A DNA stretch of 63,816 bases, filler included, from Elsinoe ampelina (taxonomy: Eukaryota), in NCBI GenBank assembly GCA_010093995.1. It is 32 parts of 32 records of this genome, joined end to end, with 100 filler letters (N's around TTAATTAATTAA, not from the genome) between each part and the next. Parts side by side here need not be neighbours in the genome. Positions count along the whole stretch, not along the records: positions 31,189 to 33,061 come from ML992629.1; 31 more parts are not named here. One strand, given 5' to 3'. The notes below the pieces were generated by a model. It searched no databases. It saw only the letters and a list, made by a program, of their open reading frames with translations, and had not been told where the DNA came from. Shown piece after piece: positions 8,157 through 57,830 of this stretch. Position 1 is the first letter of the stretch; the number at the start of each line of letters is the position of its first letter. The position numbers were made by a program, and so were the translations under genes.

Positions 8157-8457
8157 TTTACTAATCTACTAAGGGAATTATACTCTAAATTATATAGATT
8201 AGTAGCCTATCTAATTAATAGAATACCTCTTAAGAAATTAGACTAGAAAACTCTCTTTAAGCTAGTTTATAGATGTCCTCTATTAGTTACTTACCTTAGG
8301 CTACTTAGATATAAAGCTTATACTTTAGATAACCTTATTATAAGTAGTAATAAGCTTATACTAAGGACTTATATTAGCTATCTAGTTAGTTATAACTTAA
8401 CTAACATATTTAGAATCTTTATACTAGCCTCTAAGAAGGTTATTAGAATAAGAGATA
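8157..8457 (+). mobile_element. Ty1/copia integrase C-terminal fragment, RIP-mutated
   Basis: De-RIP: AAYLINRTP...LDWKTPFE...HLRLLGCKAY...KL.PRAHIGYLVGYDSTNIFRIF.P.SKKVIRTRD, a typical copia integrase/GKGY region. Confidence 0.8.
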
Positions 8458-10661
8458 TAATTACGACTAGTAAGATAAGAGGTTAATTACGTCTATTTAT
8501 TAAGATATCGAGACTTAGAAGAAGAAGAAGAAAAGCTAGTATATAAAGCACGTGTAATATTAAGGGCGGAGTAGCTAGAAGCCTAGGCTACGATACTAAG
8601 ATTATATAACTAATCTAAACTAGATACGAACTAGATTTAGTTAGGATCTATCTTATATTACTACTCTCTCTCTTAAGCGCGTTTACTCTTAAACGCTATT
8701 ATACATTATTTATCGATCTATTTCGGCCTTAGCTTATTCGTATAATAGTCTAGATAGTTACGTAGTATATTAGTAGCTCCTTTAAGATTGTTAATTAGCT
8801 ACTAGGTAAGATCTTCTAGATAGCTCTTCTAGCTTACGTAAGTAACTAGCCTTCTATGTAGTATATATATATTAACTACGTTATTTACTTTATACTTCTC
8901 TTTACTATTGACTTCTACTAGAGGTAGTTCTTCGAAGGCTTAGCCTAGTAGAAGGTTATTTAGATACTTAGTAAGAAGGTTAGTGTAGAATACTAGGTAG
9001 ATCCTTTATAGCGTAGCTAGTAGATCGAGCTTATATACTAATAGCGACTGTTTCTTAAGGATCTTATAAGGACTAATATACTTTAGTAGCAATTTCGAAT
9101 TGCTCTATAGCTAGAGGTTTTTCGTTAATAACTATACTAAGTTACCTACCTTAAACTTTATTAGCTAGTAGTATTTATTAGCTTATTCTACTATACGTAA
9201 TTAGGCGATAGTAAGGTTAGCTTTAGTAATAGCTAGTGCTTCTTCTAGTTATTTAGTAAGTACGTAGATATCGGCCTTATTTAGCTTAGCTCTTATTAAC
9301 GGCGCGTTAGAAGGGAGCTAAAAGCTTAGCCTTAGCTTATATCCTCTAGTAACCTCGAATAGTAATAGCTTAGTACTCTCTAATAGATTAACATTAGTAG
9401 AGAATTCTACGACTAGTAGAACGAGAGTCTAATTACTAAAGCGTGTAGTATATAAGCGAATAACTTACTTAAACTTACAATTTATAACCTCTAATTAGCT
9501 ATCTATTTATAGATACCTTATAGTAGAGAGTTTAGTAGTAATCTTTAGAATTTAGTAGAGCCTCTTCTATACGTCGCTAACGAACTAAGGGCCGTAATCC
9601 GAAGTAATACTATCTAGTAGACTATATAGTTTCTATACGTAGAAGAATAATAGCTTAGCTATTTTAAACACTAAAGTACTACCTTCTCTAGAGAAGTAGA
9701 GGATTAAGTATCGTTCCTTAGATAGGTAGTTAACGATATAGAGCACTACGTTATAGCCGTCTACTAAAGGTAAACTAGTAACGAAGTCTATAGTAATATA
9801 TTACTAGGGTCTTTCCGGAATAGGTAATAGTAATAGGAGGCTAGCTAGTAAGCTATAGCGAGCCTTTAAGCGTTTATAGTTGTAGTAATTAGTAATAAAC
9901 CTCTTAACGAAGTTATTATAGCCTAGGATATAAAAGGTAGTCTTAATTATAGTAGCTATCTTAGTAGCTCTAGTATGTACGTAGTTCTTTAATATATAGA
10001 CCTCTTAGATAACCTTTATAGCTATTAACTACAGTACGAATAATTAGCTAGCGACCTATAACATCCCTTTATTAATAGTAACATTAGTTAATAGTAGCTA
10101 TTTCCTCTTTAAGAAGGCCCCTATTATATAGTAGATACCTCTAACTATTTTATACTTAGTGTCCCGTAAGTTAGCTTTAGCTACTTCTTTAAAAAGGGGT
10201 AAAGGTTCTTCCGTAGCTAAGATAGGTACTATATAGGTGCCTAATTCGGCAGCCGAGATAGATGCCGATATAGGTAGCAAAATAGGTAATAAACTAGTTT
10301 ACGAACTAGATTTTAGTTCGGTAGCTAAACTAGTTCTTAGTTTAGCTCGGGATAGTAATCTAGTTCGGGTGCGACCTAGATTTAGTTTATTAATAATGCG
10401 TAGATTAAGTACTTTATATAGTAACAGCGTTTAGCGTAGATTAGAGTCTTCTTTTAAGCGTAGTATATCTCTATTTCTCCTCGTAAGTATATTAGCTTTA
10501 CTATTCGTAGCACTAGGCCTATATATAATCTTAAAGTTAAACTACGTAAGGTAGAGGGCCTAGCGTACTTAGCGGCGTAATAGCTTCTAAGTCTTTATAA
10601 AGTGTATTAAGGATTAGTAGTTAGTAAGGACGTAGATAGCCTTATTAGATTAAGTACTTAT
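8458..10661 (-). mobile_element. Gypsy family A 3' half (RNase H end, integrase, chromodomain) with 3' LTR at 8458-8657
   Basis: Reverse complement of 1-1103 and of 61400-62382. Confidence 0.88.
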
Positions 10662-16491: not shown

Positions 16492-18024
16492 TATTAAGTA
16501 GAAGGTATATTTAGGGGTAGAATATTATATAGAACTAATTATATACTAGTTAGGTAATAGATAAGTTAATTAATTAAAAGAAGTCTATCTACTAGAAGAA
16601 AGAATAGCTATAAATCCCTAGGCCTTAGTATTATATAACTTAAAGTTATATAACTTTATAGCTTAATTATCTAAAGAGAGCTATATTCTTAATACTTCTA
16701 CTTAGCTCCTATAGATAAGCTATTAGGTTAATAATAAACTAAGTTACTTTATAAACCTTATAAAGATCTAACCTTATAATAGCTTAGTTAATCTATTAGC
16801 TACTATGTCTACTATCTTTATAAACTCTACTTAAATCCTCTAGTCTCTTTATAGCCTCCTAATATAGTAGTAAGCGACATTAATATACTTTACTCTTTTA
16901 TAAGTATATAGCTCTTTTATAAGTAGAATAGCTACTTAGTTATTACTATTAATCCTAGTAGTAAAGGGTAATCTTATTATTACTTTCTAAAATTCCTTTA
17001 TAGTTAGCTTCTATAGTAATTACCTAACTATCTTATAATAGCCTATATCTCTTAGTAACTAAGATAGGAACTATAATTTCTTTATATAAGAGTATATTAC
17101 TATATATTTAGCCTCTATAGTAGAGGTTAAAATAGACTTTTACTTCTTACTTATCTAGCTAATAGAACTACCTATAAGTATAAAGATATATCTAAGAATA
17201 GAGACCTTATCTAACTTATCTAAGGTATAGTCTAAATTAGAGTATCTCTTAAGAGTCTTATTCTTATTCCTTCTAAATATAATACTAAGATCTTTAGTTA
17301 ATCTAATATATCTTAATATCTTCTTTATTTTAATAGTATAACTATCTATTAGATCTACTATAAACTAACTTAGCCTTCCTAAGGTAAAGGTAGTATCTAG
17401 CCTTATTAAGGTACTAAGGTATATCTAGCTTCTAATAGTATATAAATACTTAGTTCTACTATACCTTTTATTATTTTCCTAAGCTCTTTAAAGAAGCTTA
17501 TTATCTATTAGCTACTTTGTTAGAGTAACCTTATTAGAGGTTATATTAAGCCTCTATAGTACATTATCTATATAGTAGGTTTAATTAAGTCTTAAGGTGC
17601 TTTATTATCTATCCCTTATAACTTTAACCCTAAGAACTTTATTAACTTTACTAAGATTTTTAATCTTAAAGATCTTACTAAGTTCTTACTTAAACTACTA
17701 AATATTCTTTTTACTTTATACTATAAATAGTATATTATTAATATAAACTAAAAGAATAATCTTCTTATTATAGTATATAAGTAGATAGAGATCTACTTTA
17801 CTCTAAGTAAAGCCTAGCTTTAGGAGCTTAGAGATATAGTGCTAGTTCTAGTCTCTAGTAGCTTACTTAAGTCTATATAAGCTCCTTAGAATCTAAAAGG
17901 TAAATCTAGAACTAACCTTTAGTCTAGGTAGTAGCCTTATATAAATTCTTTTATAAAGAAAGAACTTTATAAAGGTGTTATTAATATCTACCTAGTAACA
18001 CTTAAGGTTATATATATAAATAAT
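16492..18024 (-). mobile_element. Copia element 3' end: RT/RNase H, polypurine tract and 3' LTR (16492-16694), RIP-mutated
   Basis: Reverse complement of 47947-49222. De-RIP motifs YVDD, SSTEAEY, DNQAA and SKHIDVAYH. The LTR duplicates 16191-16392. Confidence 0.88.
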
Positions 18025-18124: not shown

Positions 18125-18478
18125 AGGCGTTCCTAAGTGATCGAGCTGAAAGAGGTAACTAACGAGCGTCTCTTCTTCGGCCGGAGATAGTAACTGCTTC
18201 GGTAGATTACGTGTAGTACGTGATTGTCGGCTGTGAAGCCTATCTCGAAGCGTAGAAGGCGGAATCTTAAACGCGTCGGCAGCTTGTCGAATCGAGTCGT
18301 AAGTATCGTTCCGATAGCCTCGGAGAGCAGCTTTAATATCTGCTTCAGAATACATATAAAACAGCTCGAAGAATGATGTTTGTCACGTAGGAAGAAGGAA
18401 TAGTCACGAAGATTACGCGTTATATATATAGGGGCGTGCGCGAATTGTGGGGGTGCGCGACTCGTGGGTAGGTCACGT
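18125..18478 (-). mobile_element. pogo/Fot1-like DNA transposon 5' end with transposase N-terminus (HTH_psq/CENP-B-type), ORF from 18355
   Basis: MYSEADIKAAL...SIRQAADAFKIPPSTLRDRL...QLLSPAEEETLV. The terminal repeat begins ACGTGACC... right after a TA (18479-18480). Confidence 0.88.
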
Positions 18479-18705
18479 TAGTACGTAGGATTTTAAACGC
18501 GTTAGTAGTAGCGTTTAGAGAGTCGAATTGCTCGTGTCAATAGCCGTCTAGGGCGGCGGCGACGTTGGCTTCTATATACATAATGAAACAATTTAGATTA
18601 TAATGTTTGTTACGTAAAAAGGAAGGATAATTACGAAGTATATACGAAAAAAATAAGGAGGTGTAAGTCACTTATAGGGGTGCGTCGATTGTAGGGGAGT
18701 AATGT
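18479..18705 (-). mobile_element. Second, related pogo/Fot1-like 5' end, interrupted by the first
   Basis: ATG at 18581 reads MY(T)EA(D)VAAALDGY..EQFDSLNA...AFKI(P)RT, a paralog of the 18355 ORF. Terminal repeat ACATTACTCCCC... follows a TA. Confidence 0.75.
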
Positions 18706-18707
18706 TA

Positions 18708-20184
18708 ACTTAACCTAAGTTAAGTTATATAGTCTTAGGAGCTATAACATATAACACATGTTAGATTAACTTAACTTAACTTAAGTTACCCTAGATAGTC
18801 TTAGCGTTTAGAGTGCCTACTAGCTCTACTATAATTACATTTTGGCCTTAGTTATAATTCCTCTAAATGAATCGGCTTAGTATAACGCTACTCTTTGCGT
18901 TATATTACCTAAGACGACAAAATAGCACTCTTATAGACTGTATCTTCTATTGCGGGCTTACTCTTTGCGATTATTAAGGGTCTAAGTTAGCTAGTAATTA
19001 AGGAGCTATCGCTAGTAATATTCTACTAATGTTATCTACTAGGAGTTTACGCACCCCTAAAGTTCGCATATATAAAATAGCATTAACGAAGTAACTTCTT
19101 TAATTGCTCTATTAAATTAAGCTAATTCGTCACTAGAATTAGACTCTAAAGGCTCTAGCTCTTCTTCTTTCTCTTCCTCGAGTATATCTTCTAGTGTAGG
19201 TAATTTCTTATGCTTTTTTTGCTTCTTCTTCTTTATTGCTTCTTTAGCTTTATAAAGAATATTAATCGTTTCTTGCTTACTAAAGACGAAATAGCCTTTA
19301 ATAGTAACGCGCTTACTACTTTTCTTATACTTACGCGTCTTAAGGAGCTATTACTATTGTTTAATTTTGCGCTATAATAATGTAAAAGCTATAGTTATTA
19401 ATTCTAAATGTAATGTCATTCTTAAGATATATCGCTTAACTAGTAATTCGATATCTACGACAGCTATATACGCGTTAAGATTATAGTTAACTAGATATAA
19501 TAGTACGCCGGATTATAGCTCTAACTATAAGACATTTTTGTTAGATAGGACCTATTCTACTAGAGTAACTAATTAATTATGTAATTCGTATAGTAAATTA
19601 GTAAGCACTATAATAGGGCTTATTAGATAGATACTAGAGTATCTAAAACTAGATTTAATATTTCTTATACGTTAGTTAGAGCGTATATCTCTATATACGT
19701 ATAGGATTCGGCCTACTATATATAGTATATTTAGCTAGAATTAAGACGTTAGAGGTTATTAATCTCTATTGTAAGAGCTATCTTTAATAGTGAAAAACAT
19801 ATAATGTTAAGTAGCTAAAGAATATATAATACATAAGGGAGAAATATAATAAGGTTAATATTATACTTAAAATAGAAAAAGATAAATATAGCTATAACAT
19901 ATAAGCTATAGCTATCTAAAATAAGGAGGCGTTAATAGCTATCGATGTTATATATTTTAGGCTTAAAGATAGTTATAAGCTACTTATAACTATACGCGTT
20001 ACTTGTCTAGCCTTTATTCGATATTAAGAAACACTATCTAGCTAGCTACGGATCTAGAATCTACTATATTATAAGGTATTTAGCCTTATAGATAATAAGG
20101 GAGAGAAGAGCGTCTCTAGAGACTTATATATACTCGAGGATTAATATCTACTCTTGTCGGCTAATAATACGTTTTCTAGCCTTC
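18708..20184 (-). mobile_element. pogo/Fot1-like DDE_1 transposase catalytic and C-terminal region, RIP-mutated
   Basis: De-RIP RLLILDGHSSH at ~19900-19930 and HILQPLD..CFSPLK at ~19785-19830. Confidence 0.82.
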
Positions 20185-20397
20185 TATAAGGGCTTAGTAT
20201 TAGAGTAGCACTTAGTAGCGGCTAGTCCCGCTTACGTAACGTACTTAAATATCCTACGTAGCACTTACGCCTAAGGCTTAATAGTAATTAGTTCTACTAC
20301 TAACGGACTATTTAGTTAGATAGGCGTTCTCTATATTATAATATATATAGCTTTAATATAAGGCTTTAATAGTTCTAATTACTCCCCTATAGTTATA
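20185..20397 (+). repeat. Gypsy family B LTR (~213 bp; 3' boundary inferred)
   Basis: Same sequence at 31189-31366 (-), 41548-41760 (-), 42127-42339 (-), 51466-51596 and 51597-51810. It starts TGTAAG (literal at 51597). Confidence 0.8.
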
Positions 20398-20508
20398 ATC
20401 TATTAGACNNNNNNNNNNNNNNNNNNNNNNNNNNNNNNNNNNNNNNNNNNNNTTAATTAATTAANNNNNNNNNNNNNNNNNNNNNNNNNNNNNNNNNNNN
20501 NNNNNNNN

Positions 20509-25158: not shown

Positions 25159-26914
25159 TACTATTCTATATAAACTATAGAATATACCCGGATCTATACT
25201 ATAATATACTTAGAATTAAGCTAATATCTAAGGATACTAATATACTAGTAGCTAATATTAAGAAACTATATAACTAGCTATACTATAATATATTATTTAT
25301 ATTATAAAGAATAGTAGAGTTTACTAACTAGAAGAGAATTACAGGACTAATTCTATAGGAGGAGAAGAAAGTTTACCTCCTTAGTAAAAACATTAAAACG
25401 AAATAACTAAGTAAGAAACTTAACTACACTAAACTAGGACCCTTTAAGATCCTAGAAAAGAAAAATAAGAACATATATAAACTAGAACTACTAAGATATA
25501 TAAGGATCTATCTAGTCTCTTATATATTACTACTAGAGAGAGTACTATAGAATACTATACCTAGACCTATTAAACTAGATAAAGAAATACAGGAACTATA
25601 GTATAAGATTAAAAGGGTTTTATATTATAAACTTATTAAAGGAAAACGCTACTATCTTATTTACTAGAAGGGATATTAGTATAGTAAAGCAACATAGGAA
25701 CTAGAGGAGTACTTTACCTTATAAATAATTCTAAATTACTAAATTAAGAACCTATCCTAAGTAAACTAACTAGACGGACCTAGTACTCCTAATACTAAAC
25801 AAAAACGAGAATGCCTAAGGAAAGTTACTTAGCTAATAGAAGTACCTTAATCGTTGCTAAATAGAGAATCCTAGTTAGAGTTAGGCATAAATAATTACTA
25901 GTCCTATAGTAGGATAGGATCTACTAATAATAGTATTTCCTCCTACTCTAGGACTTAAATATAGGTCTCTTCTAGAGAGATTACTTTCTTTGCCTTATCC
26001 TTTAACTTTTATATCTCTTTATATAGGCGAAGCTTATTGCCTATAGCTCTTTAATAAGCCTCTTCTACCTTTTTATAAGCTTCTTTAGCTTCCTTTCTAG
26101 TAGTCTTAGCTATAACTAATTCCTTTTGTAAACGAATATACTTAGACTAGAGACGCTACTATTCTAATTTTATTACTTAAATATTATAACTTAAGTAGTT
26201 ACTTACGATATACTAGCTATAGATACCCGACTAAATATAAACCTTATAATTTAGCCTCTTTAATTTGTAACAAGAATAAGCCTATAGTATATTAGTTCCG
26301 AATAGTTCGATAAACTTTAAAAGATTCTTTCGTATAGATATGCTAGATTTACTATGCCTTTAATAACTAGGAGGTATATTTAGTATATAGCGTATAAAGA
26401 CAAGAAAGAATACTTACTTATTAGGACAACTTAATTAAAGAAGGAGAGTAATGTTATAAACTAGTAGAATAGCTAGAGCGTAGAGATATTAGGGCTAATT
26501 AAACTACTAAGGTTATTATATAACCTAGCCCGACATTTACCTAGTTCTCTATCTTCTTTAGTAGCTCTACCCTAGAGACTATAGAGTACATAGGTTACTA
26601 GTAGATATATACTCTATACTACTCCTAGCTTTCGCTACGGAGTATATAGAGTATATAAAGTACATAATAGAGAATATATATATATAGAAATAGTCCTTAC
26701 CTTATATAAGTACTATAGTTAACCTTGTCTAGATAGCGAATACTAGTATTACTAAGGCTAGCCTTTGTAATACTATCTAATTATACTTTATTATCTATAA
26801 GATATACCTTCTCTAACTCTTACCTTAGTACTATACTACTATAGAAGTAGAACTACCTCGTTCTTAGCTTAGCTTAGACTACTAGCGTAGACTATGTTTA
26901 GATAGTTCGTAATA
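25159..26914 (+). mobile_element. Gypsy family F 3' end: integrase tail, chromodomain, extra 3' region, polypurine tract and 3' LTR (26452-26914)
   Basis: De-RIP KNIKTKRPSKKLDYTKLGPF and YLIHWKGYQHSEATWEPEEH. AAAGAAGGAGAG purine tract, then a 463-bp LTR matching 59621-60083 and 37012-37290. Confidence 0.9.
25829..26377 (-). pseudogene. Antisense accessory gene of gypsy family F: Zn2Cys6-like cluster plus coiled coil (~182 aa), RIP-mutated
   Basis: 549-nt frame without indels. De-RIP reading: AC-SC-C-KSKGLD-C-KVHIRSGI-C-GQ-C-x7-C-DIQVTKSEWQRL...RLQKEL...; the stops are RIP-type (TGG/CAG/CAA to TAG/TAA). Confidence 0.7.
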
Positions 26915-27113
26915 TAGAACAAGAGTCTAATTACTAAAATGTATAGCGTATAAACGAATAATCTACTCGAACTTGCAATTTATAACCTCTAATTAGCTGT
27001 CGGTTTATAGGTGCCCTATAGTAGATAGTTTAGTAGTAATCTTTAGGATTTAGTAGAGCCTCTACTATACGTCGCTAACGAACTAAGGGCCGTAGTTAGA
27101 GGTAATACTATCT
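26915..27113 (-). mobile_element. Gypsy family A integrase fragment (target of the family F insertion)
   Basis: Matches 9415-9615. Confidence 0.8.
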
Positions 27114-31088: not shown

Positions 31089-31188
31089 NNNNNNNNNNNN
31101 NNNNNNNNNNNNNNNNNNNNNNNNNNNNNNNNTTAATTAATTAANNNNNNNNNNNNNNNNNNNNNNNNNNNNNNNNNNNNNNNNNNNN

Positions 31189-33061
31189 CTTATATTAAAG
31201 CTATATATATTATAATATAGAGAACGCCTATCTAACTAAATAGTCCGTTAGTAGTAGAACTAATTACTATTAAGCCCTAGGCGCAAGCGCTATATAGAAT
31301 ATCTAGGTGCGTTATATAAGTAGGACTAGCCGCTACTAAGTGCCGCTCTAATACTATACTCTTATAATTGCCTTCTCCTCTAGGGGAGCTATTCTTAGCT
31401 CTACGCTAGCACATTAAATGTATAATTTAAGGCGAAGGTAACGTAGGCCTTAAGGTATTTTCGGTTATATATTACATATAAATCGTATACTACTTAGTTA
31501 TTATAGTCCTAATAGTCTAGGTCGAAGGGGGCGTTTATCTAGTTACTATAGTATTAAAGCTAATTAGTAGTAACAATATTACTTTTTCTTAAAATTCCTA
31601 GTAGTACTATAGGGGACGCGCGCTCTACGCTAGCGGCTATAATAAAGATATAGTACACTAGAGGTTAGTATATATAACCTTACTATTGCCTCTTACTTTC
31701 TCTCTTCTATATATTAAAATATATTTTTATTTTCTTAGACCTCTACTTTAATATAGCGCTTCTTACTTAACTTATACTTACCTTGTAATGTCTACTCCTT
31801 TATATAATATATATAGCTCTAGCTCTTATTAGTCCCCTATAACTCTCTCGGGTGTGTCTTATACGACTCTCGCTAGCGTAGGTCCTACGCTAGCTTCCCT
31901 CTACTATAGGTGTACTATAGGCATTAATAAGAGTAAGTATAGTCTATTCGAATATAATTTGTAACTAATATATAGTAGAATTTAACTATATTAGTAGGAA
32001 TTTTAGTACCCTTACTAAGAAGAAGTATACTTACTATATTAAGAGTTACTATACCTACGAGCTACTTCTACCTTACCTATATAGTAACTATATAGCTATA
32101 TATAACGTATTTAACTCGCTTACGGAGATCGACAACAATAATAACAACACGCCTATAGACCGCGCGACTCTTAATAAGACTCTTAAGAACTTTAAGAATT
32201 TGTTAAAGGTATACTATACTAATAAGAATAAGGTTACTAGTAAGGTATCTACGCCTCGTGCTAGCTATATAGGCGCTATATATAGCGCACTTAACTAGGA
32301 GAAGGTAGTAGAGCTTTAGAAGATTAAGAGAACCTTAACTACCTTAGTAGCGGTTAGATAGGAGATATATTAGCTACGTCGCTTATATATCTATCTTACG
32401 ACTAATATACTTAGATAGTGTATAATACTAGTAGGTTAACTAAGTACTTCGATAGGATTATAGCTAGAGGAGAGTTTTTTAAGGATAAGAATAAGATTAA
32501 GAAGAATAATAAGAATAGAGAGTAGTAGGGTAGTTATATACAAGCTAGGTGTACGTCTCTAGTGCTATACCTATAAGGCCTTATATATAGTATAGAAGTT
32601 TACGGCGTTTAGAATAATACTTACATAGCTAGCGTAAGTATAGCGCTTTATTAAAATATATTACTCTAGACAAGGAGTCTATCCTTTAACTAGTTTATAT
32701 GCTTATATAATTTAACTACTTATATGCTCTATAATCTACACCTTCCGCGACTCTTCTTAGGCGCTCTTAGCTATAACTTATATATAGTAATTAGCTCTCT
32801 CGTATTTACGTAATTCTCTTTAGGTTCCTAGCTATTAAACTCGATAGGCTAGTCCTTTTACTTTACTAAGTAGAACACCTTACTCTTCGTAGTTCTCTTA
32901 CCTAGGATTTTCTCTACTATCTACTTATCTACTTTATCTACGAGAGGTATACTCTCTTCTAGCTCTTTACTAGCTCTACCTATCTATAGTTCGAGAAGAG
33001 ATATATAAAAGACATTATAGATATAATACTAACTTAGTAAGGCTAGGTAATATACCTATAA
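31189..33061 (-). mobile_element. Gypsy family B 3' end: chromodomain, ~1.4-kb extra region, polypurine tract and partial 3' LTR (31189-31366)
   Basis: 32790-33061 matches 5513-5785. The minus strand shows GAGGAGAAGG immediately before the LTR start. Confidence 0.87.
31788..32525 (+). pseudogene. Spliced antisense accessory gene of gypsy family B: six-cysteine cluster, helical region and acidic tail, RIP-mutated
   Basis: ATG 31788. Intron 31933-31975 (GTAAGT...ACTAAT...TAG) is phase-compatible. De-RIP C-HR-C-x10-C-x12-C-x2-C-x6-C-EPLP. A probable second intron at 32365-32414, then ...EDEDEIEEDDEDGE-stop. Confidence 0.62.
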
Positions 33062-33161
33062 NNNNNNNNNNNNNNNNNNNNNNNNNNNNNNNNNNNNNNN
33101 NNNNNTTAATTAATTAANNNNNNNNNNNNNNNNNNNNNNNNNNNNNNNNNNNNNNNNNNNN

Positions 33162-35026
33162 ATACGCTTAGAAGGTAGCTAGGGCATTAGTTAATCTAAA
33201 AGGTATAACTAAGTACTTAAAATAGCTATAGTATATATAGAATATAGTCTTCTACTCGTTACTACGCTTAATAGAGATCCTATAGTAGGTATCCTTTAGA
33301 TCTAACTTTAAGAACTACTAAGCTTACCCGAGCTAATTAAGTATCTTACTAATAAGTAGAAGTAGGTAACAATTCTTAATAGTTACCTCGTTTAAGCCCT
33401 AGTAATCTACGTATAAGTATAGAGTACTATCCTTTTTAGGTATAAATAAGATAGAAGCACCTACCTTACTTATAGAGCGCTAGATCTACCTATTTAATTT
33501 AGTAGTCTTAAGATAGTATTTAAGTACTTTTAGCTCGTTAACTAAAAGGTTTTATAAGGGCTAGAACGAAGGCCTTTTACTAGGCTCTAGCTTAATTATA
33601 TACTCGGCGCCTAGTAGGCGTAGTAATTTAGTAATATTCTTATAGATAAAGACATTAAAGAACTCTATAAACTCTAATAGTAGAGCTAGGTCGCCTACGG
33701 CGTAGGTATAGTCCTTAGATAGAGTCTATACTATAGCGTATATTCTTAGCTTATTCTAGAGGTCCTTTATAAAGTCTTCTAGTTTACGTAGGTAGACTAT
33801 ATATAAGAAGTAGCTATATAACTAGTTATCCGTAGTGCTATTTATAATTATGTATTATCTTCTCTACTATAGGCGCCCTAAAATAACTAGAGGGCCTAGT
33901 TCTAAGTCTATAGCGTAGAAGAGGCTAATTGTCTCCCTAAGGTCGCTATAGAAGTCTACTAGGCATATATAAAGCTAGTACGCGCCGTAGTAGAATCTAG
34001 CTTACTCTATAAAGAAAGAGATACTTAGATACTAAGTATACTTAACCTTTAGTAGATCGTAACGAAGGGTAAATACCTAAGATATAAGATTAACTTCTAT
34101 ATAATTGTCTATAAGAAATATATAGTCTTTGCGCCTTATAGGTGCTATAATAGCGCTATAATAGAGTAGCAATAGATAAGTGTTAATTAGGAGAGAAGAA
34201 GGGCTTAGTTATACTCTTTAGCTAAGCCCTTAGAGTTTACTAACTTAGAGTTATTAACCTTATTAGTAGTAGTAACCTTACGTACCGCCTACGACTTATT
34301 ATTCTTCTATAAGTGCTTTAACCTATACTCTAGCTTAATATAACTAGTTCTACTATAGCTATAATACTTAGTATTCTTCTTTTACTTATTAGAGGAACCT
34401 CTCTACCTACTAAACTATTTAGTAGGTAGGTTAGTAGCTTCGCGCTTATAGTAAGCTTAAGAGCTACTACCGGACTAGTAGTAGTATCCTCCTCGAGAGC
34501 TACTATAACTACTATACTTACGTAGGTAGTTACTTTTATCTTTCTATATAGCGTACTTACTACTAGTATAGTCTATAGACTTAATACGTAAGTCTAAAGA
34601 GACTAACTCCTAGCGCGTAGCTAGAATAGTATAGTGTTTAATAATAGTAGTACGTAGCGTAGGCTATAGCTTAGTAAGGAGGTAATATACCTTCTACTCC
34701 TTAGAGTAGAGAGCTAGTTACTCCTTAAGGGTAGTAAGCTCTAAGGCAAAGGCCTAGATAGATTAGCCCTTATATTATTAGGCTCCCTTATATACGAGAG
34801 TTACGCGTACTTTACAATTAATAGAGTTATTAACTATGTCCTATATAAACTAGTAGAATTACTCCTACGTATAGCTTTCTAGGCTATCTACGTAGTAGTA
34901 GTAATACTATATCTTATCTAGCTTACCTACGAGAAATATAACTCTATAGAGCACCTTCTACTAGTTAGTAGAATAAGCCTTAGAGGCTAGAGTAAAGATA
35001 ACCTCGAGATTCTTTAGGAAGGATCT
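33162..35026 (-). mobile_element. Gypsy family B gag, protease and RT, RIP-mutated
   Basis: Reverse complement of 1200-2560 and 52215-52951. Confidence 0.87.
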
Positions 35027-35126: not shown

Positions 35127-36911
35127 ATCAGGAACTACACTGATGTTTGGGTAAAGCTGCTGAGGTTTATCTGGAGGACCTGGGACCTGGCTGAGGGGGA
35201 TAGACCAGGATACAAGCTGCTGACTACACAGAGGACATTCCTGATGAATGTTATGGACTTAGCAAGACGAGATGATGGGGATGATGACATCAGGAGCCAA
35301 CTGGTTGAGAGTCTTGGGCAATTCTGGCTGTCCATGTTCCAGCATGAGCTTGGTGATGATCATCATGAAAGTGCTCTGGTTAGTGGACTTGCTATTCTTG
35401 GCTTAAACACTGAAGATGGGAGCTGGGCCAGACCTGAGAACTTCAGCTCTACCATTGCAGCCCTGGTGACCATTGGCAAGGCACTGGTAGTCAGACAAGC
35501 ATGGAAGCAGAGGGAAGATGAGATAGACAACCTGGTTGAAGCTGAGGAGCTTAACAGGTCTAAGGCCAAGGAGATGGTACCAGGAATTCTCATAAGGGTA
35601 CAGGAGACAGTCCAGAAGTTCATGGCCATTGCTAGCTTCCATGGGCGACCAAATGTGATGGACAGGCTGGTTAGGATGCTCAAGTATGGCAGGGAGGTTA
35701 GGAACACCACCAAGGGTCCAGCCAGGATTGCCTGGGAAGGTGAAGTAATCATGGTTGATGAGGTCAAGTTCTCCATGCCTGACCTAAAGATGACTGTTCA
35801 TGGGTTACTGGCAACCTGCTGGAGGCGTATGAGGATTGACTTGATGCGTTTAGGAGAGGAAGATAAAAAGGGGCAAGAACTGCCATCCCTGGAGCTCAGG
35901 AACCTACAGGACTCCCCAGGAGAGATGAGGGAAGGCTTCAGCTTTCTTACCCTCCAGAGCAATCAATGGTCTGTGGATGGGTCATCCTGGCTGGCTCAGA
36001 GGCTGCTGAGGTACATTGGCAGACCTCAAGGTAGCAAAGGCTTTCTCCTGAACCAGGATGCAGTCAAGGAATGGGTCTCTCAGCTCAGGAAATTCAAGGA
36101 AGAACTGTTTGTCCTGGTACATCTCACTGGAGGCGCTCCTGCCAGGGGCACGGAGATAGTCAGTATCAAGTGCCAGAATGGCCCTGATGGGAGGATAGGC
36201 AGGGGGATATTCCTGGACAGAGGCCTGGTCAGCTTTGTGTCATCCTATCACAAGGTATCCAGGATCAAGAGCAGGGCAAGGACAGTGCATAGATATGTCC
36301 CTCAGGAAGTCAGCCAGTTGGTGGTATATTATCTCTGGCTTATAAGACCTTTCAGTAGGCAGCTGGATGGCTTCTGGAGGGGCAACTATGAGGACAGTGG
36401 GTATCTCTGGGAGCCAGAACCTGAGGCTGAGTGGAGTGATGAGGAGGCAGAAGATCATGGCTCCAGGTCTGACAGGGGAGAACTCATGGATGTCACTGGT
36501 TGGGATGAAGGGGTAGGAGGGTCAGCAGAGACCTCACCACCAGGACTGCCAGCTGGACAGCCTAAGAACCTTGATGGATTCTGGAGCACTAATAGGAGAA
36601 GAAGAGTACTCAGCAGGGAGACTTCTAGTCGCATGGGGGCCAGGATTACCATGGCATCCTGGAGGCAGGTCTACCCTGCTATCCAGAGGAACTATACTAG
36701 GGATGTATCTGCCAGGGCCGTCCTAGATGATCTGTTCACCCATGAAGAGGGGGCTTGGGCAAAGGGCTCGACAGGAAAGGGCAAAGAACTGTCCCTGAAC
36801 ATCAGGGAAGAGCAGTCAGGCCATAGTAAGTGGATGGAAGAGTTAGTGTATGGGATCCTCTACTCTGAGTCTCCTAACAGTACCCTGTCAGAAAGGGAAG
36901 ACTTCAGGAAG
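35127..36911 (+). CDS. Telomere-linked RecQ helicase (TLH)-type protein, N-terminal/central fragment, open across the whole contig
   Basis: 595 stop-free codons (IRNYTDVWVKLLRFIWRT...SALVSGLAILG...HLTGGAPARGTE...HRYVP...YYLWLIRPF...). 36300-36911 appears identical to 56357-56968, which continues into helicase motifs. Confidence 0.88.
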
Positions 36912-40749: not shown

Positions 40750-42339
40750 TATAGTACTTAATAATAGTAGTATATAGCGTAGGCTATAACTTAGTAAGGA
40801 GATAGTGTACTCTTTATTCTTCTAAGTAGAGAGCTAGTTACTTCTCTAGAGTAGTAAGTTCTAAGGTAAAGGCCTAGATAGATTAGCTCTTACGTTATTA
40901 GGTACCCTTATATATAAGAGTTATATACACTCTATAGTTAATAGGGTTATTAACTACGTTCTATACGAACTAGCGAAATTGCTCCTATATATAGCTCTCT
41001 AGGCTATCTACGTAGTAGTAGTAATACTATATCTTATCTAGCTCGCTAGCGAGGAATATAACTCTATATAGTACCTTCTACTAATTAGTAGAATAAGCCT
41101 TAGGGGCTAGAGTAAAGATAACCTCGAGATTCTTTAGGAAGAATCTTGCCTCTTTAAGCGTCTTACTCTAATAGGAATAAGGCTCCCTTAATTAAGGTTA
41201 TCCTAAGGACAGCCTTATAAATAATCCGCCTACGCTACGTACGCTCTAAGTACTAGCTTCGCTTACTACGTACTCTATAGAGGTACGCGAGCTATAGCTA
41301 AAGCTAGTAGAAGTATATTCTATATTATATATATAATATATCTACTTAATCTCTTCCTCGAGGCTCTAAGCTTTAAGCTTTAGCTCTAAATACTTACGCT
41401 TAGCGCGTAGGTATAGTAGCTACTCTACGAGAGTTTCTTCTTTCTCTAGGGAAGTCTACTTAATAGAGTCTATCTCTATAATATTGTTTATACGAGGTAT
41501 AGGCGCCTTGCTAATAGAGTTCTAGTTGTCTATAGAGTCTAATAGATTATAACTATAAGGGAGTAATTAGAACTATTAAAGCTTTATATTAAAGCTATAT
41601 ATGTTATAATATAGAGAACGCCTATCTAACCGAATAGTCCGTTAGTAGTAGAACTAATTACTATTAAGCCCTAGGCGTAAGTACTACGTAGGATATTTAA
41701 GTACGTTATATAAGTAGGACTAGCCGCTACTAAGTGCCGCTCTAATACTAAGCCCTTATAGTTCTCTTAGTTAAGGTTATCTAGAGGACAGCCTTATAAA
41801 TAGTCTACTACTACTATATATACTCTATATACTAGCGTTACTTACTATAGGCTTAGTAGAAGTACGCGAGCTATAGTTAAAGCCTTCTTAGTAGTATTCT
41901 ATATCGTATATATAGTGTATTTACTTAATCTCTTCCTTAAGGCTCTAAGCCTTAAGCTCTAGCTCTAAATACTTACGCTTAGCGCGTAGGTATAGTAGCT
42001 ACTCCGCGAGAGTTTCTTCTTTCTCTAGGGGAGTCTACTTAATAGAGTCTATCTCTATAATATTATTTACGTAAGATATAGGCGCCTTACTAATAGAGTT
42101 CTAGTTGTCTATAGAGTCTAATAGATTATAACTATAGGGGAGTAATTAGAACTATTAAAGCCTTATATTAAAGCTATATATATTATAATATAGAGAACGC
42201 CTATCTAACTAAATAGTCCGTTAGTAGTAGAACTAATTACTATTAAGCCTTAGGCGTAAGTGCTACGTAGGATATTTAAGTACGTTACGTAAGCGGGACT
42301 AGCCGCTACTAAGTGCTACTCTAATACTAAGCCCTTATA
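40750..42339 (-). mobile_element. Two nested gypsy family B 5' ends (LTRs 41548-41760 and 42127-42339, each followed by gag)
   Basis: The LTR+gag block is duplicated internally. The first LTR abuts gag sequence of the second copy at 41761. Confidence 0.83.
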
Positions 42340-42475
42340 GAAGGCTAGAAAACGTATTATTAGCCGACAAGAGTAGATATTAATCCTCGAGTATATATAA
42401 GTCTCTAGAGACGCTCTTCTCTCCCTTATTATCTATAAGGCTAAATACCTTATAATATAGTAGATTCTAGATCCG
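42340..42475 (+). mobile_element. pogo-like transposase fragment (same locus as 20049-20184)
   Basis: Appears to be the exact reverse complement of 20049-20184. Confidence 0.8.
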
Positions 42476-42575: not shown

Positions 42576-44272
42576 TCTCTCTTAGAACTTATCCTTAACT
42601 ATAGAGGATAACAATACCTAATTAAGGTAGCTAGTGCTAACACTCTTAAAGGACAACTATAAGAAGTAGTTCTAATAGATAGAGCTCTAGCTAGCATCTA
42701 AGAAGGTGTTATAGACCCTTAATTCCCTTACTAAACCACTAGTAATAACTCTAGGGTTATTATTAGCTTCTTTATTTAACTCCTAGTATTCTCCTTAGTT
42801 AGTAGAGGAGAATAGTGCTACCCTTTACTAGATCTATAGATATATCTTAGAAAGAGATTAAGAGATAATTTAGGAATAGTAGTAGGCTAAACTAGCTTAG
42901 GAGAAGCTAAAGAGTAAGTACATAAAGCAGATAGGTATATAGGTAAGACAACTATAGAGAGAGTTTATTACATATACTATAAGTAATAAGATAACTATCT
43001 TAGAAGCCTAGTTACACCTAACTATGTTAGGAAGGAGGATTAATAGATCTTTATAGGTTAAGTAATACTCTACACTAACGACAAGAATCTAAACTCTGCT
43101 TACTACTCTTCTAGCTTTATAGTTATTTATAAGGGATGCCTTAGATGCTTAGCTATACCTTAGTATAAATAAGATCTATAATATCCTTAAGGAAAAGGAA
43201 GCCTAGAAGGGAGAAGGGGAATCTACTATGTTTATAAGAGATAGACTACAAGGAACTAGTAGAAGTCTAACTTATATATATATCTTATATAAGGAACCTA
43301 GACACTCTATGTCTAGGTGCCCTTATCTCTAATAAGCTAAGAAGCATGTCCCCTCCTATAGGGTTACTAAAAGAGCTAGTCCTATAAGGAGATAGTCACC
43401 TAAACGCTAGGAGCTGCTTAAACTTATAAGATAGCTTACTAAGAGAATAGATTCTCTAGAAGCAGCTAAGTTAAAGAGGAAAGGTAAAGCCTATCTAGCT
43501 ACTAAAGGAGGATCACTATTAACATCTCTATCTCTACTACTAGAGGTTCTTTCTAGAGGTAAAGAGCTTAAGACTATAGGTTCTATATTAGAGGTTTAAG
43601 GTAAGCTTCTACACTATTAGTAGATACTTAACTCTAGAGCATCTAACTATATAATAGACAGGCTAACTCTCTTTAGGGGCCTATTAAGTAAGATATATAC
43701 TCGATAGATCTAGGTTAGGGAGAGTTACCTTTAGTTATAGTTAATAGAAACTACTATTATTAAGACTAAGAAGAGAGATAAGATAAAGGTATAGGCTCTT
43801 TATATACCTAATCTTAGTGTTAATTTAGTCTCCTATTACAAGCTATATATAGACTTAGAAGTTTCTAGAGTTCTTAATTTAAATTCTTTTCTTGTTCTTA
43901 ATTTATAAAAGCAGCTACTACTTAAAGCTAGAATTCGAGGGGGGGTATATATTATCTAATCCCTCTTTAAGTAGTTAGCTAATTAAAAGCCGCATTCTAG
44001 ATCTAAGCCCGGCTTAATTCTAGATCTAGCTAATTAGGACATAGTATTCCTTACTACTTAGCTAGTAATTATATTACATACTAAGTATATATATCTAACC
44101 TAGGATAAGCAACATAAGGATCTTATTAATTTAAGACCTAATAACTCTAATATAGAGTACTAACTCTAGCATAGGAGATTTGCTTACCTTAGAGTTAAGA
44201 AGCTTAGGGATCTTTATAAGGTTATAACTCTTAAGAAGCTTATTAATTTAAACTATAATTTGTTAATCCTAT
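42576..44272 (+). mobile_element. Ty1/copia gag, protease and GAG-pre-integrase region, RIP-mutated
   Basis: De-RIP WILDSGASNHM at 43621-43653, ALYVPNLGVNLVS at ~43795 and LWHRRFAHLG at 44164-44193. Confidence 0.85.
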
Positions 44273-47946: not shown

Positions 47947-49222
47947 TAAGAAGATTATTCTTTTAGTTTATATTAATAATATACTATTTATAGCATAAAG
48001 TAAGAAGAATATTTAGTAGTTTAAGTAAGAACTTAGTAAGATCTTTAAGATTAAAGACCTTAGTAAAGTTAATAAAGTTCTTAGGGTTAAAGTTATAAGG
48101 GATAGACAATAAGGCACCTTAAGACTTAATTAAATCTACTATATAGATAATATGCTATAGAGGCTTAATATAACCTCTAATAAGGTTACTCTAATAAAGT
48201 AGCTAATAGATAATAAGCTCCCTTAAAGAGCTTAGGAAGATAATATAAGGTATAGTAGAACTAAGTACTTATATACTATTAGAAGCTAGATATACCTTAG
48301 TACCCTAATAAGGCTAGATACTACCTTTACTTTAGGAAGGCTAAGTTAGTTTATAGTAGATCTAATAGATAGTTATACTATTAAAATAAAGAAGATATTA
48401 AGATATATTAGATTAACTAAAGATCTTAGTATTATATTTAGAAGGAATAGAAATAAGACTCTTAAGAGATACTTTAATTTAGACTATACCTTAGATAAGT
48501 TAGATAGAGTCTCTATTCTTAGATATATCTTTATACTTATAGGTAGTTCTATTAGCTAGATAAGTAGGAAGTAGAAGTCTATTTTAACCTCTACTATAGA
48601 GGCTAAATATATAGTAATATACTCTTATATAAAGAGATTATAGTTCCTATCTTAGCTACTAAGAGACATAGGCTATTATAAGATAGTTAGGCAATTACTA
48701 TAGAGGCTAACTATAAAGGAATCTTAGAAAGCAATAATAAGATTACTCTTTACTACTAGAATTAATAGTAATAACTAAGTAGCTCTTTTACTCGTAAAAG
48801 AGCTATATACTTATAAAAGAGTAAAGTACATTAATATTGCTTACTACTACGTTAGGAGGCTATAGAGGGACTAGAGGATTTAAGTAGAGTTTATAAGAAT
48901 AATAGATATAGTAGCTAATAGATTAACTAAGCTATTATAAGGTTAGATCTTTATAAGGTTTATAAAGTAACTTAGCTTATTATTAACCTAATAGCTTATC
49001 TATAGGAGCTAAGTAGGAGTATTAAGAATATAGCTCTCTCTAGATAATTAGGCTATAAAGTTATATAACCTTAAGTTATATAATACTAAGGCCTAGAGAT
49101 TTATAGCTATTCTTTCTTCTAGTAGATAGACTTCTTTTAATTAATTAATTCGTCTATTACCTAATTAGTGTATAATTAGTTCTATATAATATTCTACCCC
49201 TAAATGTGCCTTCTACTTAATA
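47947..49222 (+). mobile_element. Copia RT/RNase H, polypurine tract and 3' LTR (49020-49222), RIP-mutated
   Basis: De-RIP YVDD at ~47969, SSTEAEY at ~48587 and SKHIDIAYH at ~48820. The LTR matches 16492-16694. Confidence 0.88.
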
Positions 49223-51271: not shown

Positions 51272-51465
51272 NNNNNNNNNNNNNNNNNNNNNNNNNNNNN
51301 NNNNNNNNNNNNNNNTTAATTAATTAANNNNNNNNNNNNNNNNNNNNNNNNNNNNNNNNNNNNNNNNNNNNAATCTATTAATTACCTTCTAACTACTATA
51401 GTTAGTAGTAAACTAACTCTAACTAAGTCTAGTTTAGCTTAACTAATCTATCTTAGGTCTCTATA

Positions 51466-52951
51466 TATAAAGGCTTAGTATTAGAGTAGCACTTAGTAGC
51501 GGCTAGTCCTACTTACGTAATATACTTAAATATCCTATATAGCGCTTACGCCTAGAGCTTAATAGTAATTAGTTCTACTACTAACGGACTATTTAGTGTA
51601 AGAGTATAGCATTAGGGCGGCACTTAGTAGCGGCTAGTCCCGCTTACGTAACGCACCTAGATATTCTATATAGCGCTTACGCCTAGGGCTTAATAGTAAT
51701 TAGTTCTACTACTAATAGACTATTTAGTTAGATAGGTATTCTTTATATTATAATATACGTAGCTTTAATATAAGGCTTTAATAGTTCTAATTACTCTACT
51801 TATAGTTATAATCTATTAGACTCTATAGACAACTAGAACTCTATTAGTAAGGCGCTAGCGCCTTATATTATCGATATTATAGAGATAGACTCTATCGAGT
51901 AGACTCCTCTAGAGAAAGAAGAGACTCTCGCGGAGTAGCTACTATACCTACGCGCTAAGCGTAAGTATTTAGAGCTAAAGCTCGAAGCTTAGAGCCTTAA
52001 GGAAGAGATTAAGTAAATACACTATATACGCGATATAGAATACTACTAAGTAGGCTTCGACTATAGCTTACGTGCTTCTACTAAGCCTATAGTAAGTAAT
52101 ACTAGTATATAGAGTATATATAGTAGTAGTAGACTATTCGTAAGGCTATTTTCTAGACGACCTTAACTAAGAGAACCTTATCTCTATTAGAGTAAGACTC
52201 TAAAAGAGGCAAGATCCTTCCTAAAGAATCTTAAGGTTATCTTTACTCTAGCCTCTAAGGCTTACTCTACTAACTAGTAGAAGGTGCTATATAAAGTTAT
52301 ATTTCTCGTAGGCGAGCTAGATAAGATATAGTACTACTACTACTATGTAAATAGCCTAGAAAACTATATATAGGAGTAATTCTACTAGTTTATATAGGAC
52401 GTAGTTAATAACTCTATTAATTATAAAGTACGTGTAACTCTTATATATAAGGGAGCCTAATAACGTAAGGGCTAATCTATCTAGGCCTTTACCTTAGAAC
52501 TTACTACCCTTAAGGAGTAACTAGCTCTCTACTCCGAAGAGTAGAGAGTACGCTATCTCCTTACTAAGCTATAGCCTACGCTACGTACTACTATTATTAA
52601 ACACTATACTATTCTAGCTACGTACTAGGAGTTAGTCTCTTTAGGCTTACGTATCGAGTCTATAGACTATACTAGTAGTAAGCGCGCTATATAAGAAAAT
52701 AAAAGTAATTACCTACGTAAGTATAGTAGTTATAGTAGCCCCCGAAAAGGACACTACTACTAGTCTAGCGGCGGCTCTTAAGCTCGCTATAAGCGCGAAG
52801 CTACTAACTTACCTACTAAATAGTTTAGTAGTTAGGGAAGTTTCTCTAACGAGTAAAAGAGAGACGCTAAGTGCTATAGTTATAGTAAAACTAGTTATAT
52901 TAAGCCGGAGTATAGGTCGAAGCACCTATAGAAGAATAGTAAGTCTTAGGC
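51466..52951 (+). mobile_element. Gypsy family B: truncated LTR (51466-51596) interrupted by a full LTR (51597-51810) and gag
   Basis: LTR sequence restarts with TGTAAG at 51597. The gag runs to the CCHC knuckle at ~52870-52915. Confidence 0.83.
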
Positions 52952-56356: not shown

Positions 56357-57830
56357 CCTCAGGAAGTCAGCCAGTTGGTGGTATATTATCTCTGGCTTAT
56401 AAGACCTTTCAGTAGGCAGCTGGATGGCTTCTGGAGGGGCAACTATGAGGACAGTGGGTATCTCTGGGAGCCAGAACCTGAGGCTGAGTGGAGTGATGAG
56501 GAGGCAGAAGATCATGGCTCCAGGTCTGACAGGGGAGAACTCATGGATGTCACTGGTTGGGATGAAGGGGTAGGAGGGTCAGCAGAGACCTCACCACCAG
56601 GACTGCCAGCTGGACAGCCTAAGAACCTTGATGGATTCTGGAGCACTAATAGGAGAAGAAGAGTACTCAGCAGGGAGACTTCTAGTCGCATGGGGGCCAG
56701 GATTACCATGGCATCCTGGAGGCAGGTCTACCCTGCTATCCAGAGGAACTATACTAGGGATGTATCTGCCAGGGCCGTCCTAGATGATCTGTTCACCCAT
56801 GAAGAGGGGGCTTGGGCAAAGGGCTCGACAGGAAAGGGCAAAGAACTGTCCCTGAACATCAGGGAAGAGCAGTCAGGCCATAGTAAGTGGATGGAAGAGT
56901 TAGTGTATGGGATCCTCTACTCTGAGTCTCCTAACAGTACCCTGTCAGAAAGGGAAGACTTCAGGAAGGTCAGTGTAGATTGGCACAAGTTCCTGGGCTT
57001 CTCTTCTGCACTGGAAGATCCTGTTGAAGGCTCTGAGGCCAGGAGACAAGAAGAACTTCGGCTTAAGGCAGACCAGTTCCTTCGCTGGAAGAAGATCAGG
57101 GCCATCCAGCTCACCCAGGCACTGCATCAACTCCATGGGCCAGGTGCTGTATTCCGGGGCCTACAGAAGAAGGCCCTAAAGGCCATTATTGAGGGAGAGC
57201 GGAGGCTCATGGTGATCATGGGCACAGGAAAGGGGAAGAGCTTGTTGTTCATGCTACCAGTAAAGGCAGTCCCTGGGGGCCTGACAGTGGTCATTGTTCC
57301 CCTTGTCTCCCTGAAGGATGATCTGAAGAGAAGGTGTGATCAGTCTGGCATCAGGAGTGCTGAATGGTCCAGTAAGAAGCATGCCTTCCAGGCAGACATC
57401 ATCTTTGTTGTCCCAGAATCAGCTGTCACCAAGGAATTCCAGAGGTTCCTAGAGTCCAGGAAGCTTACAGGTGGGGTGGACAGGATCATCCTTGACGAGT
57501 GTCATATGCTCCTGGACTCCCTTACAGGCTGGAGACCAAAGATGCTGGAGCTGGTAAGCATGGTAGACAAGGGGATACAGCTGATCTTCCTTACAGCCAC
57601 AATGAGGCCAAAGGATGAACCTGACTTGCTTGCCATCATGAATCTCAGGGAGGAAGATCTGAGGATCATGAGGGAAGAGACAAGTAGGAAGAACCTGGAG
57701 TACAGGGTATTGGAGTATAACAGACAGGATGAAGTGATGGAAGTCAGGAGGGTGGTTGAGCAGAAGCTGAGAGAGTATGAGCAAGGGAAGATCATCATCT
57801 ATGTCAGGGACATCAGGCAGGGTGACCTGA
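56357..57830 (+). CDS. Telomere-linked RecQ helicase, central fragment with helicase motifs Q, I, Ia, II, III and IV
   Basis: Open throughout. FRGLQKKAL, MGTGKGKS, VIVPLVSL, DECH, LTAT, IIYV. Confidence 0.93.

Follow-up and report, generated by a model that had tools for sequence, protein, structure and literature searches.

The 3' end of a Ty3/gypsy chromovirus in Elsinoe ampelina (assembly GCA_010093995.1) probably includes an accessory gene antisense to pol, in a copy that has been inactivated by repeat-induced point mutation (RIP) and for which an intact homologue was found in Elsinoe fawcettii. The DNA analysed, here called the window, is a stretch of 63,816 bases made up of 32 unplaced contigs joined by N44-TTAATTAATTAA-N44 linkers, and the real context of the antisense gene is one 1873-bp contig alone (31189-33061). 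In this contig the gene is read from the plus strand, in the spacer between the end of pol and the polypurine tract and 3' long terminal repeat (LTR), and two short spliceosomal introns are predicted within it. Confidence is good for the existence of the gene and for its strand, introns and position within the element; function is excluded from this judgement. Judged from its sequence, the antisense gene exceeds chance, with one phmmer match and six aligned cysteine positions. The copy in the window is dead, RIP-inactivated.

An intact homologue in Elsinoe fawcettii

A frame-0 translation of 31969-32370, with X at stops, was used to query 1,835,955,588 representative proteins by phmmer at a threshold of E 0.001. 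A single protein was returned within the threshold (E 2.1e-9), with query residues 10-129 aligned to its residues 47-170. This protein, KAF4546987.1 (213 aa, P0001 below), is annotated as 'Hypothetical protein D9617_77g092410 [Elsinoe fawcettii]' and belongs to the citrus scab fungus. P0001 forms a cluster of one, lies on an 18,192-bp contig and is not RIPped. BLASTP of the exon 2 region against P0001 gave 45/123 identical residues, and tblastn of P0001 on all 32 contigs matched the contig at 31189-33061 alone (E 1.8e-15; next best 0.29). A first-pass annotation of this DNA had proposed an antisense gene in the spacer between pol and the 3' LTR, and this is borne out by the homology to P0001 on the strand opposite pol.

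The cysteines of P0001 are residues 31, 34, 44, 57, 60 and 67, giving the spacing C-x2-C-x9-C-x12-C-x2-C-x6-C. The protein also has a basic GKKKCTYCVRLKHKC stretch, EKVKELQKIRRAMTALVAL, a helix (ELQKIRR...LVAL) and a Gly/Glu/Asp tail closing with seven Asp + Glu. In the window the six motif cysteines have as counterparts one TGT codon and five TAT/TAC codons, and a single G>A change separates each of these five from Cys (positions in Table 1). The six-cysteine motif described in the first-pass annotation therefore stands in its spacing, and all six cysteines are real in P0001, but in the window itself five of them read Tyr and one alone is a true Cys codon. Exon 2 has, in addition, a basic KKK stretch, a TNKNK.T..STP block and an EL.KI.R..T.LVA helix. 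The intact protein likewise agrees with the other parts suggested beforehand: a helical ELQKI(K/R)R..L segment, a second intron (ranked among splice models below) and an acidic tail.

The spliced model begins Met-Ser, like P0001, and has 209-210 codons compared with the 213 aa of P0001, giving 193 aligned columns. Residues were identical as read in 60/193 columns. The P0001 residue could be reached by reversing RIP at TpA in 96/193 columns, with 70 for a transversion control at those sites. If T>C and A>G changes were allowed at any site, it could be reached in 116/193, with 81 for the matching control. The RIPped set comprises 27 of the 32 contigs (50.5 kb), which have G+C below 0.45 and strong RIP indices. 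For the contig at 31189-33061 G+C is 0.33, TpA/ApT 1.96 and (CpA+TpG)/(ApC+GpT) 0.17; both indices mark it as RIPped, as do the transition-type differences among copies. Comparisons with P0001 were made with a RIP-aware matrix, in which a codon may count as any codon convertible into it by RIP at TpA. When all 162 frames of the RIPped contigs were scanned, the best frame for the middle part of P0001 was the one here (score 165; runner-up 100), and the exon 3 frame was first of the 162 for P0001 residues 171-195 (52 against 46).

Three in-frame TAG stops interrupt the spliced model (Table 1), that is 3/210 codons, compared with 73/847 in the pol frame of a sister contig. This low stop density fits, because P0001 has only six Gln and one Trp (counted by eye). 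The Lys/Asn-rich tail in the window is the positional counterpart of the acidic tail of P0001. Since G>A makes Lys and Asn from Glu and Asp codons, the earlier description of this tail as D/E-rich after reversal of RIP is reasonable, and the strict TpA rule covers part of it only.

Predicted introns

The signals on which the first-pass gene model was built were all found in place on the plus strand: ATG at 31788-31790, GTAAGT at 31933-31938, ACTAAT at 31964-31969 and TAG at 31973-31975, the last being followed directly by a second TAG at 31976-31978. The stop TAG at 32523-32525 was also verified. Exon 1 is in another frame than exon 2, and the tail stands in a third frame relation; two removals are therefore needed. 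Every GT..AG pair around each frame switch was scored against P0001 with the RIP-aware matrix. At the first switch, donor 31933 with acceptors 31978 (46 nt) and 31975 (43 nt) ranked first and second of 22 models, with scores of 132 and 124 compared with 99 unspliced, so that the first intron proposed earlier is the best GT-AG model for collinearity with P0001. The 46-nt form yields C-x9-C exactly as in P0001. At the second switch the model 32353-32414 ranked first of 41, scoring 125, with 102 for the next model and 72 unspliced. Both candidate introns have GT..AG ends and a CTRAY branch site near the acceptor (ACTAAT, 7-10 nt ahead in each case), and the removal of each restores the frame. The two TAG trinucleotides of the tandem acceptor (31973-31978) are 3 bases apart and in frame, and two protein forms differing by one residue are possible.

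By itself the intron motif set is no more than chance. In 101 kb of RIPped strand there are nine instances of the strict pattern GTAAGT..ACTAAY..TAG, and one of them lies in the contig at 31189-33061 itself, on the other strand. This extra pattern (49 nt, minus strand, offset 1027 from 33061, within the spacer on the pol strand) illustrates how readily RIPped DNA imitates introns. The frame changes could then be RIP-era or assembly indels in an originally intronless dead gene, with GT..AG signals present by chance in TA-rich DNA, and another copy does have single-base deletions within exon 1; two sequencing runs presumed to be RNA (X3 and X6) gave no contig matching the stretch, a result that is uninformative about expression. 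Against such indels, each switch coincides with a segment (43-46 nt and 62 nt) to which nothing in P0001 corresponds, bounded by GT..AG and with ACTAAT at branch distance, and the splice models come first of 22 and first of 41. Signal sets of the intron 1 and intron 2 types are rare (0.089 and 0.28 per kb of strand), and the frame switch is confined to ~70 nt for intron 1 and ~95 nt for intron 2, so chance placement is unlikely; the chance of finding the signals in these two short windows was estimated at ~0.006 and ~0.03, before the frame requirement. Decay of an intronless gene is for these reasons considered quite improbable.

A further explanation would dispense with the gene altogether. 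On this view P0001 is no more than a chance open frame of GC-rich DNA, its likeness to the window reflecting a conserved non-coding feature or a feature of the sense strand of the spacer. A high content of Ala, Gly, Pro and Glu, often seen in shadow frames of GC-rich DNA, is found in P0001, which has no known domain, and the codon-aligned minus frame in the window is fairly open, with four stops in ~130 codons. However, no Pfam match was obtained on the minus frames of the spacer, while on the plus strand the run 31969-32295 is free of stops for 109 codons, the second longest such run in the 50.5 kb of RIPped DNA in six frames (longest 114). Start, stop and length agree between model and protein, the spacing of the six conserved cysteines is zinc-finger-like, conservation is block-wise, and strand-specific splice signals lie exactly at the frame switches. 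These data make the absence of a protein gene highly improbable.

The host element and other copies of the gene

Read along the minus strand, the contig at 31189-33061 shows the 3' part of a Ty3/gypsy chromovirus: first the end of pol, next a spacer of ~1.35 kb and a polypurine tract, and last the beginning of the 3' LTR. The layout assumed in the first-pass annotation, with the gene between the chromodomain and the 3' LTR, was right, as the Chromo match, polypurine tract and LTR repeat lie in one contig. The integrase-end chromodomain by which such elements are recognised was detected with Pfam Chromo on the minus frame (E 1.3e-5, 25.4 bits, cut-off 25.1; residues 48-95, ~32777-32920). The pol frame from 33061 has nine RIP-type stops in its first 111 codons, and the pol stop is probably at 32729-32731.

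Positions 32790-33061 are 90.8% identical by blastn to the first 272 bp of the sister contig 5513-8056, the minus frame of which is an unbroken pol of reverse transcriptase (RT), RNase H, integrase and chromodomain, with the stop codons counted above. The order RT, RNase H, integrase was thus seen on the sister contig, not on the contig with the gene, and tblastn agrees. The best database match of the sister pol was P0002 (E 3.9e-113, 32% identity, 99% coverage), which has the domains PF00078, PF17917/19, PF17921, PF00665 and PF00385. As a protein-search query the same pol gave 10 matches, none of them from Elsinoe.

At the other end of the contig, the LTR-like sequence 31189-31368 was matched by five blastn pieces at 90-92% on contigs 51372-52951, 40750-42475 and 18125-20408. 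Its summed contig depth in DNA runs of the same organism was 10-40x that of the spacer, with loose ends at 31366. The contig holds the polypurine tract and the repeated LTR; the 5' LTR, primer-binding site and target-site duplication are absent from it.

Further copies were sought among contigs of two DNA runs (X1 and X2, 541 + 828 contigs) from one sample of the same organism, aligned at a likeness of at least 80%. These runs contain three or more further, diverged versions of the gene region, and the possibility left open by the first-pass annotation, that the gene is a one-off found in this copy only, does not hold. X1 records 4, 5 and 6 span 32335-32480 and differ from the window at 43/265, 53/364 and 22/259 letters, and X1 records 5 and 7 extend to 32662 and 32729, beside the pol stop. 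Transitions made up 307/351 of the changed places in X1 and 320/346 in X2. Five contigs have G at 32327, where the codon becomes Arg, as in P0001, in place of the Lys of the window. At 31790 other copies read A, and the ATG of the window therefore keeps the older G under RIP. Both states are as expected if the gene decayed from an ancestor resembling P0001.

Depth and contig counts over 31700-32640 were several-fold below those of the LTR and the chromodomain, with loose ends at 31586, and the sole homologue is annotated as an ordinary hypothetical protein. A host gene trapped between a gypsy fragment and an unrelated LTR, or recently captured at the DNA level by one element lineage, would account for both. 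A conserved host gene should, however, have orthologues in annotated fungal proteomes, yet only one protein was matched. The diverged RIPped copies also cover the gene, two of them as far as the pol stop or close to it, and the polypurine tract and LTR stand in the order expected of a single element. Host capture is thus regarded as improbable, and an accessory gene of the element is preferred.

Several points weigh against this conclusion. Conservation rests on one automatically predicted 'hypothetical protein', and no further relative of P0001 was found among 5.8 billion proteins, metagenome contigs and viral contigs. Summed contig depth over the gene was 5-40x below that of the LTR and chromodomain (which is not a copy number), and the gene may be confined to a minority of the family. 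For exon 1 taken by itself the similarity to P0001 is not significant, and its frame was not among the best of the 162 for P0001 residues 1-47. The donor of intron 2 (GTTAGA) is weak. Unspliced, frame 0 gives another C-x2-C (TGT AAC TAA TAT, 31960-31971); this alternative has no ATG, has five stops in the 60 codons upstream and scores 99 against 132. With regard to function, the protein lacks a match in Pfam, among PDB sequences or by fold, and we infer both zinc binding and the fold.

Table 1. Features of the contig 31189-33061 (window coordinates)
Feature	Position	Strand	Basis
Start of 3' LTR, truncated by contig end	31189..31368	-	Repeat matches, depth
Polypurine tract AGAGGAGAAGG (plus strand CCTTCTCCTCT), role inferred from position	31371..31381	-	Directly upstream of LTR
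Presumed promoter and 5' untranslated region of antisense gene, ~400 bp	31382..31787	+	Position only
Exon 1: ATG, N-terminal stretch, first C-x2-C (TAC 31902, TGT 31911), in-frame TAG 31830	31788..31932	+	
Intron 1 (predicted): GTAAGT donor, ACTAAT, tandem TAG/TAG acceptor	31933..31978	+	Model ranking
Exon 2: cysteine positions 3-6 (TAT 31987, 32026, 32035; TAC 32056), in-frame TAG 32296, 32317	31979..32352	+	phmmer, BLASTP to P0001
Intron 2 (predicted), 62 nt: weak GTTAGA donor, ACTAAT 32401-32406, TTAG acceptor	32353..32414	+	Model ranking
Exon 3: DRIIARGEF (P0001: DHIMGGGEY), Lys/Asn-rich tail, stop TAG	32415..32525	+	
pol 3' end: integrase C-terminus and chromodomain	32729..33061	-	Pfam Chromo; match to contig 5513-8056

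Other contigs of the window

The window contains 62 runs of 44 N, paired around TTAATTAATTAA, and contig sizes descend from 2738 to 1334 bp. This layout is a bin of unplaced contigs, and adjacent contigs are therefore uninformative about one another. Linkers lie for example at 31089-31188 and 33062-33161, and a feature that spans a linker is a concatenation artefact.

No second P0001-like sequence was detected in the window by tblastn, by the RIP-aware ungapped scan or by gapped scans of the spacers in 8157-10661 and 25159-27113, all of which gave background scores. A second family with the same architecture, and a module recurring in fungal chromoviruses, as put forward in the first-pass annotation, are thus conjectural, P0001 being the one homologue found outside the window. 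A raised RIP-aware score of 150-154 in contig 25159-27113 came from an alignment full of stops and was rejected as noise, and a weak match to the tail of P0001, with an E of 0.46, lies in contig 42576-44272, which on inspection looks unrelated and may be copia-like. Among the five un-RIPped contigs, 35127-36911 and 56357-57830 (G+C 0.52) gave identical chance tblastn matches; they therefore have sequence in common and may be duplicates or alleles.

Gypsy sequences were recognised in further contigs. Contig 8157-10661 is a gypsy 3' end with a pol match at ~8871-9824 on the minus strand and ~700 bp behind pol, where a 79-codon stop-free run (8247-8483) lies opposite pol; this run has no similarity to P0001 and may be the other family with an antisense gene to which the first-pass annotation referred. 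Contig 25159-27113 has a gypsy integrase end at ~25371-25538 on the plus strand, followed by 1.5 kb without recognised content. A stop-free run of 70-95 codons (TILVVS.LY.KIKV...), exceptionally open by the standard of RIPped DNA, recurs in three contigs, at 52666-52950 (+), 34333-34572 (-) and 1194-1403 (+). In contigs 1-2738 and 33162-35026 it lies upstream of matches to P0002 (residue 22 on), and it is probably gag. A 69-codon run (FIVDLIDSYTIKIKK...) is common to two very AT-rich contigs, at 17158-17364 (-) and 48350-48556 (+), which probably represent another retroelement family.

The predicted protein

Pfam hmmscan of P0001 at E <= 10 returned Imm5_like alone (E 0.013, below cut-off) and no Zn_clus, and neither Zn_clus nor TRP28 (PF04195) gave a Pfam match in the six window frames or in P0001. 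A PDB sequence search with P0001 gave 0 matches. Word-indexed searches outside the 'longer' and 'shorter' length classes, with the whole protein (1476 candidates scored) and with residues 28-172 (644 candidates scored), recovered only P0001 itself, and no relative was found in two metagenome-contig scans or one viral-contig scan.

Structure prediction gave an unusable full-length single-sequence model of P0001, with a predicted local distance difference test score (pLDDT) of 43.5. For residues 28-91, one of five AlphaFold models reached a pLDDT of 75.1, the others lying at 43.7-52.3, and in that model two knuckle-plus-helix units are followed by a longer helix. When the PDB was searched with this model by Foldseek, nothing matched at E <= 0.001; a likeness to the fold of PPR1 (1pyi_B) had an E of 4.5 and a probability of 0.03, carries no weight and was discarded. 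A wide search with VIA-align found 8 chains at Z >= 2, with a best Z of 2.5.

The spacing rule for Zn2Cys6 clusters is C-x2-C-x6-C-x5-12-C-x2-C-x6-8-C. P0001 resembles this family (PF00172; GAL4, PPR1) in its six cysteines, its two C-x2-C-x(n)-C halves, its 12-residue linker and its basic second half, C-x2-C-x6-C, which like the linker agrees with the rule, and small Zn2Cys6 activators likewise have a helix and an acidic tail downstream. It differs in the first half, which is C-x2-C-x9-C, not x6, and is without basic residues. With this spacing and without a PF00172 profile match, P0001 was not assigned to Zn2Cys6.

The best explanation of the data is a Ty3/gypsy chromovirus copy, inactivated by RIP, in which an accessory gene runs antisense to pol in the stretch that separates pol from the polypurine tract and 3' LTR. 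The gene probably has three exons and two short spliceosomal introns, and once encoded a product of ~210 residues composed of a short N-terminal stretch, the motif C-x2-C-x9-C-x12-C-x2-C-x6-C with its basic second half, helical segments and an acidic Gly/Glu/Asp tail. Transcription might start from its own promoter, in the ~400 bp between polypurine tract and ATG, or from the 3' LTR. The genomic RNA of the element would correspond to the minus strand here, so that introns on the plus strand would never meet the spliceosome and would be copied faithfully. The survival of antisense introns through retrotransposition is established logic, and is also the basis of antisense-intron retrotransposition reporters. 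The basic Cys-rich head would bind nucleic acid and the acidic tail would act as an effector, comparable to the antisense HBZ of human T-cell leukaemia virus type 1 (HTLV-1). That the protein is a small zinc-binding nuclear regulator of transcription or silencing of the element itself is a tentative suggestion from our analysis, which we consider the likeliest role and yet on balance doubtful.

Comparison with known systems

The feature is of a known kind, an extra antisense gene of an element; the protein family is undescribed and its member copy here is non-functional. In the full-text literature searched here the one described case found of a fungal accessory gene was brtn, which reportedly goes back to Zhao et al. 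2011, Virology 417:248. Excerpts of PMC8365987 and PMC4227169 describe brtn as an additional gene, antisense in orientation, in the Boty-like (BcGypsy1) elements of Botrytis cinerea, and the excerpt of the latter lists gag, RT, IN and CHROMO as parts of BcGypsy1 (PMC4227169). On these excerpts the likeness is that of an extra gene lying antisense in a fungal Ty3/gypsy element with a pol chromodomain. brtn was compared by description alone, not by sequence, and the searches with P0001 gave no relative of that name.

In plants, additional antisense open reading frames (ORFs) between pol and the 3' LTR are described in parts of PMC11963269, with works on them cited in PMC7264820, for maize Grande, rice RIRE2 and Silene/Retand elements (TRP28, PF04195). 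According to the same part of PMC11963269, the Grande protein is nuclear, its gene has its own promoter, and DNA binding or regulation is the suspected role of these plant ORFs. As described there, they resemble the gene found here in their orientation and in their position in the spacer between pol and the 3' LTR. They differ in that they belong to non-chromovirus elements with spacers of 2.9-6.6 kb, whereas the gene here lies in a 1.35-kb spacer of a fungal chromovirus and has introns. P0001 and the window frames gave no Pfam match to TRP28 and were not placed in that family.

Accessory genes in LTR retrotransposons are rare and their roles mostly obscure. A second, unrelated-looking fungal case would provide a concrete protein with which self-regulation of the element or effects on host defence can be tested, and it offers an intact homologue, a metal-binding-type motif and antisense introns. 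Because the copy here is dead, its value is that of a pointer to a family. When Tyr, stop, Lys and Asn codons are traced back through RIP, real genes can be recovered from DNA that annotation discards. P0001 and the wreck in the window may even be the first two sightings of an undescribed retrotransposon-encoded family in Dothideomycete-type chromoviruses, composed of zinc-cluster-like mini-regulators (basic Cys6 head, helix, acidic tail), antisense and with introns kept through retrotransposition, that would be expressed from the 3' end of the element and control its transcription or blunt host silencing; this broader proposal is speculative, and we would sooner expect it to fail than to hold.

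HBZ of HTLV-1 is a small nuclear regulator encoded antisense near the 3' LTR, and its transcript can be spliced as its introns lie on the non-genomic strand. HBZ has been compared with antisense ORFs such as those of plant elements, with mention also of APH-2 of HTLV-2, in the part of PMC11963269 that deals with them. The differences are that HBZ is a basic leucine zipper (bZIP) protein of an animal retrovirus and has no sequence relation to P0001, and regulation by the fungal protein is conjecture. If such regulation were true, the protein would be a fungal counterpart of HTLV-1 HBZ, so far hidden from annotation by repeat masking and RIP.

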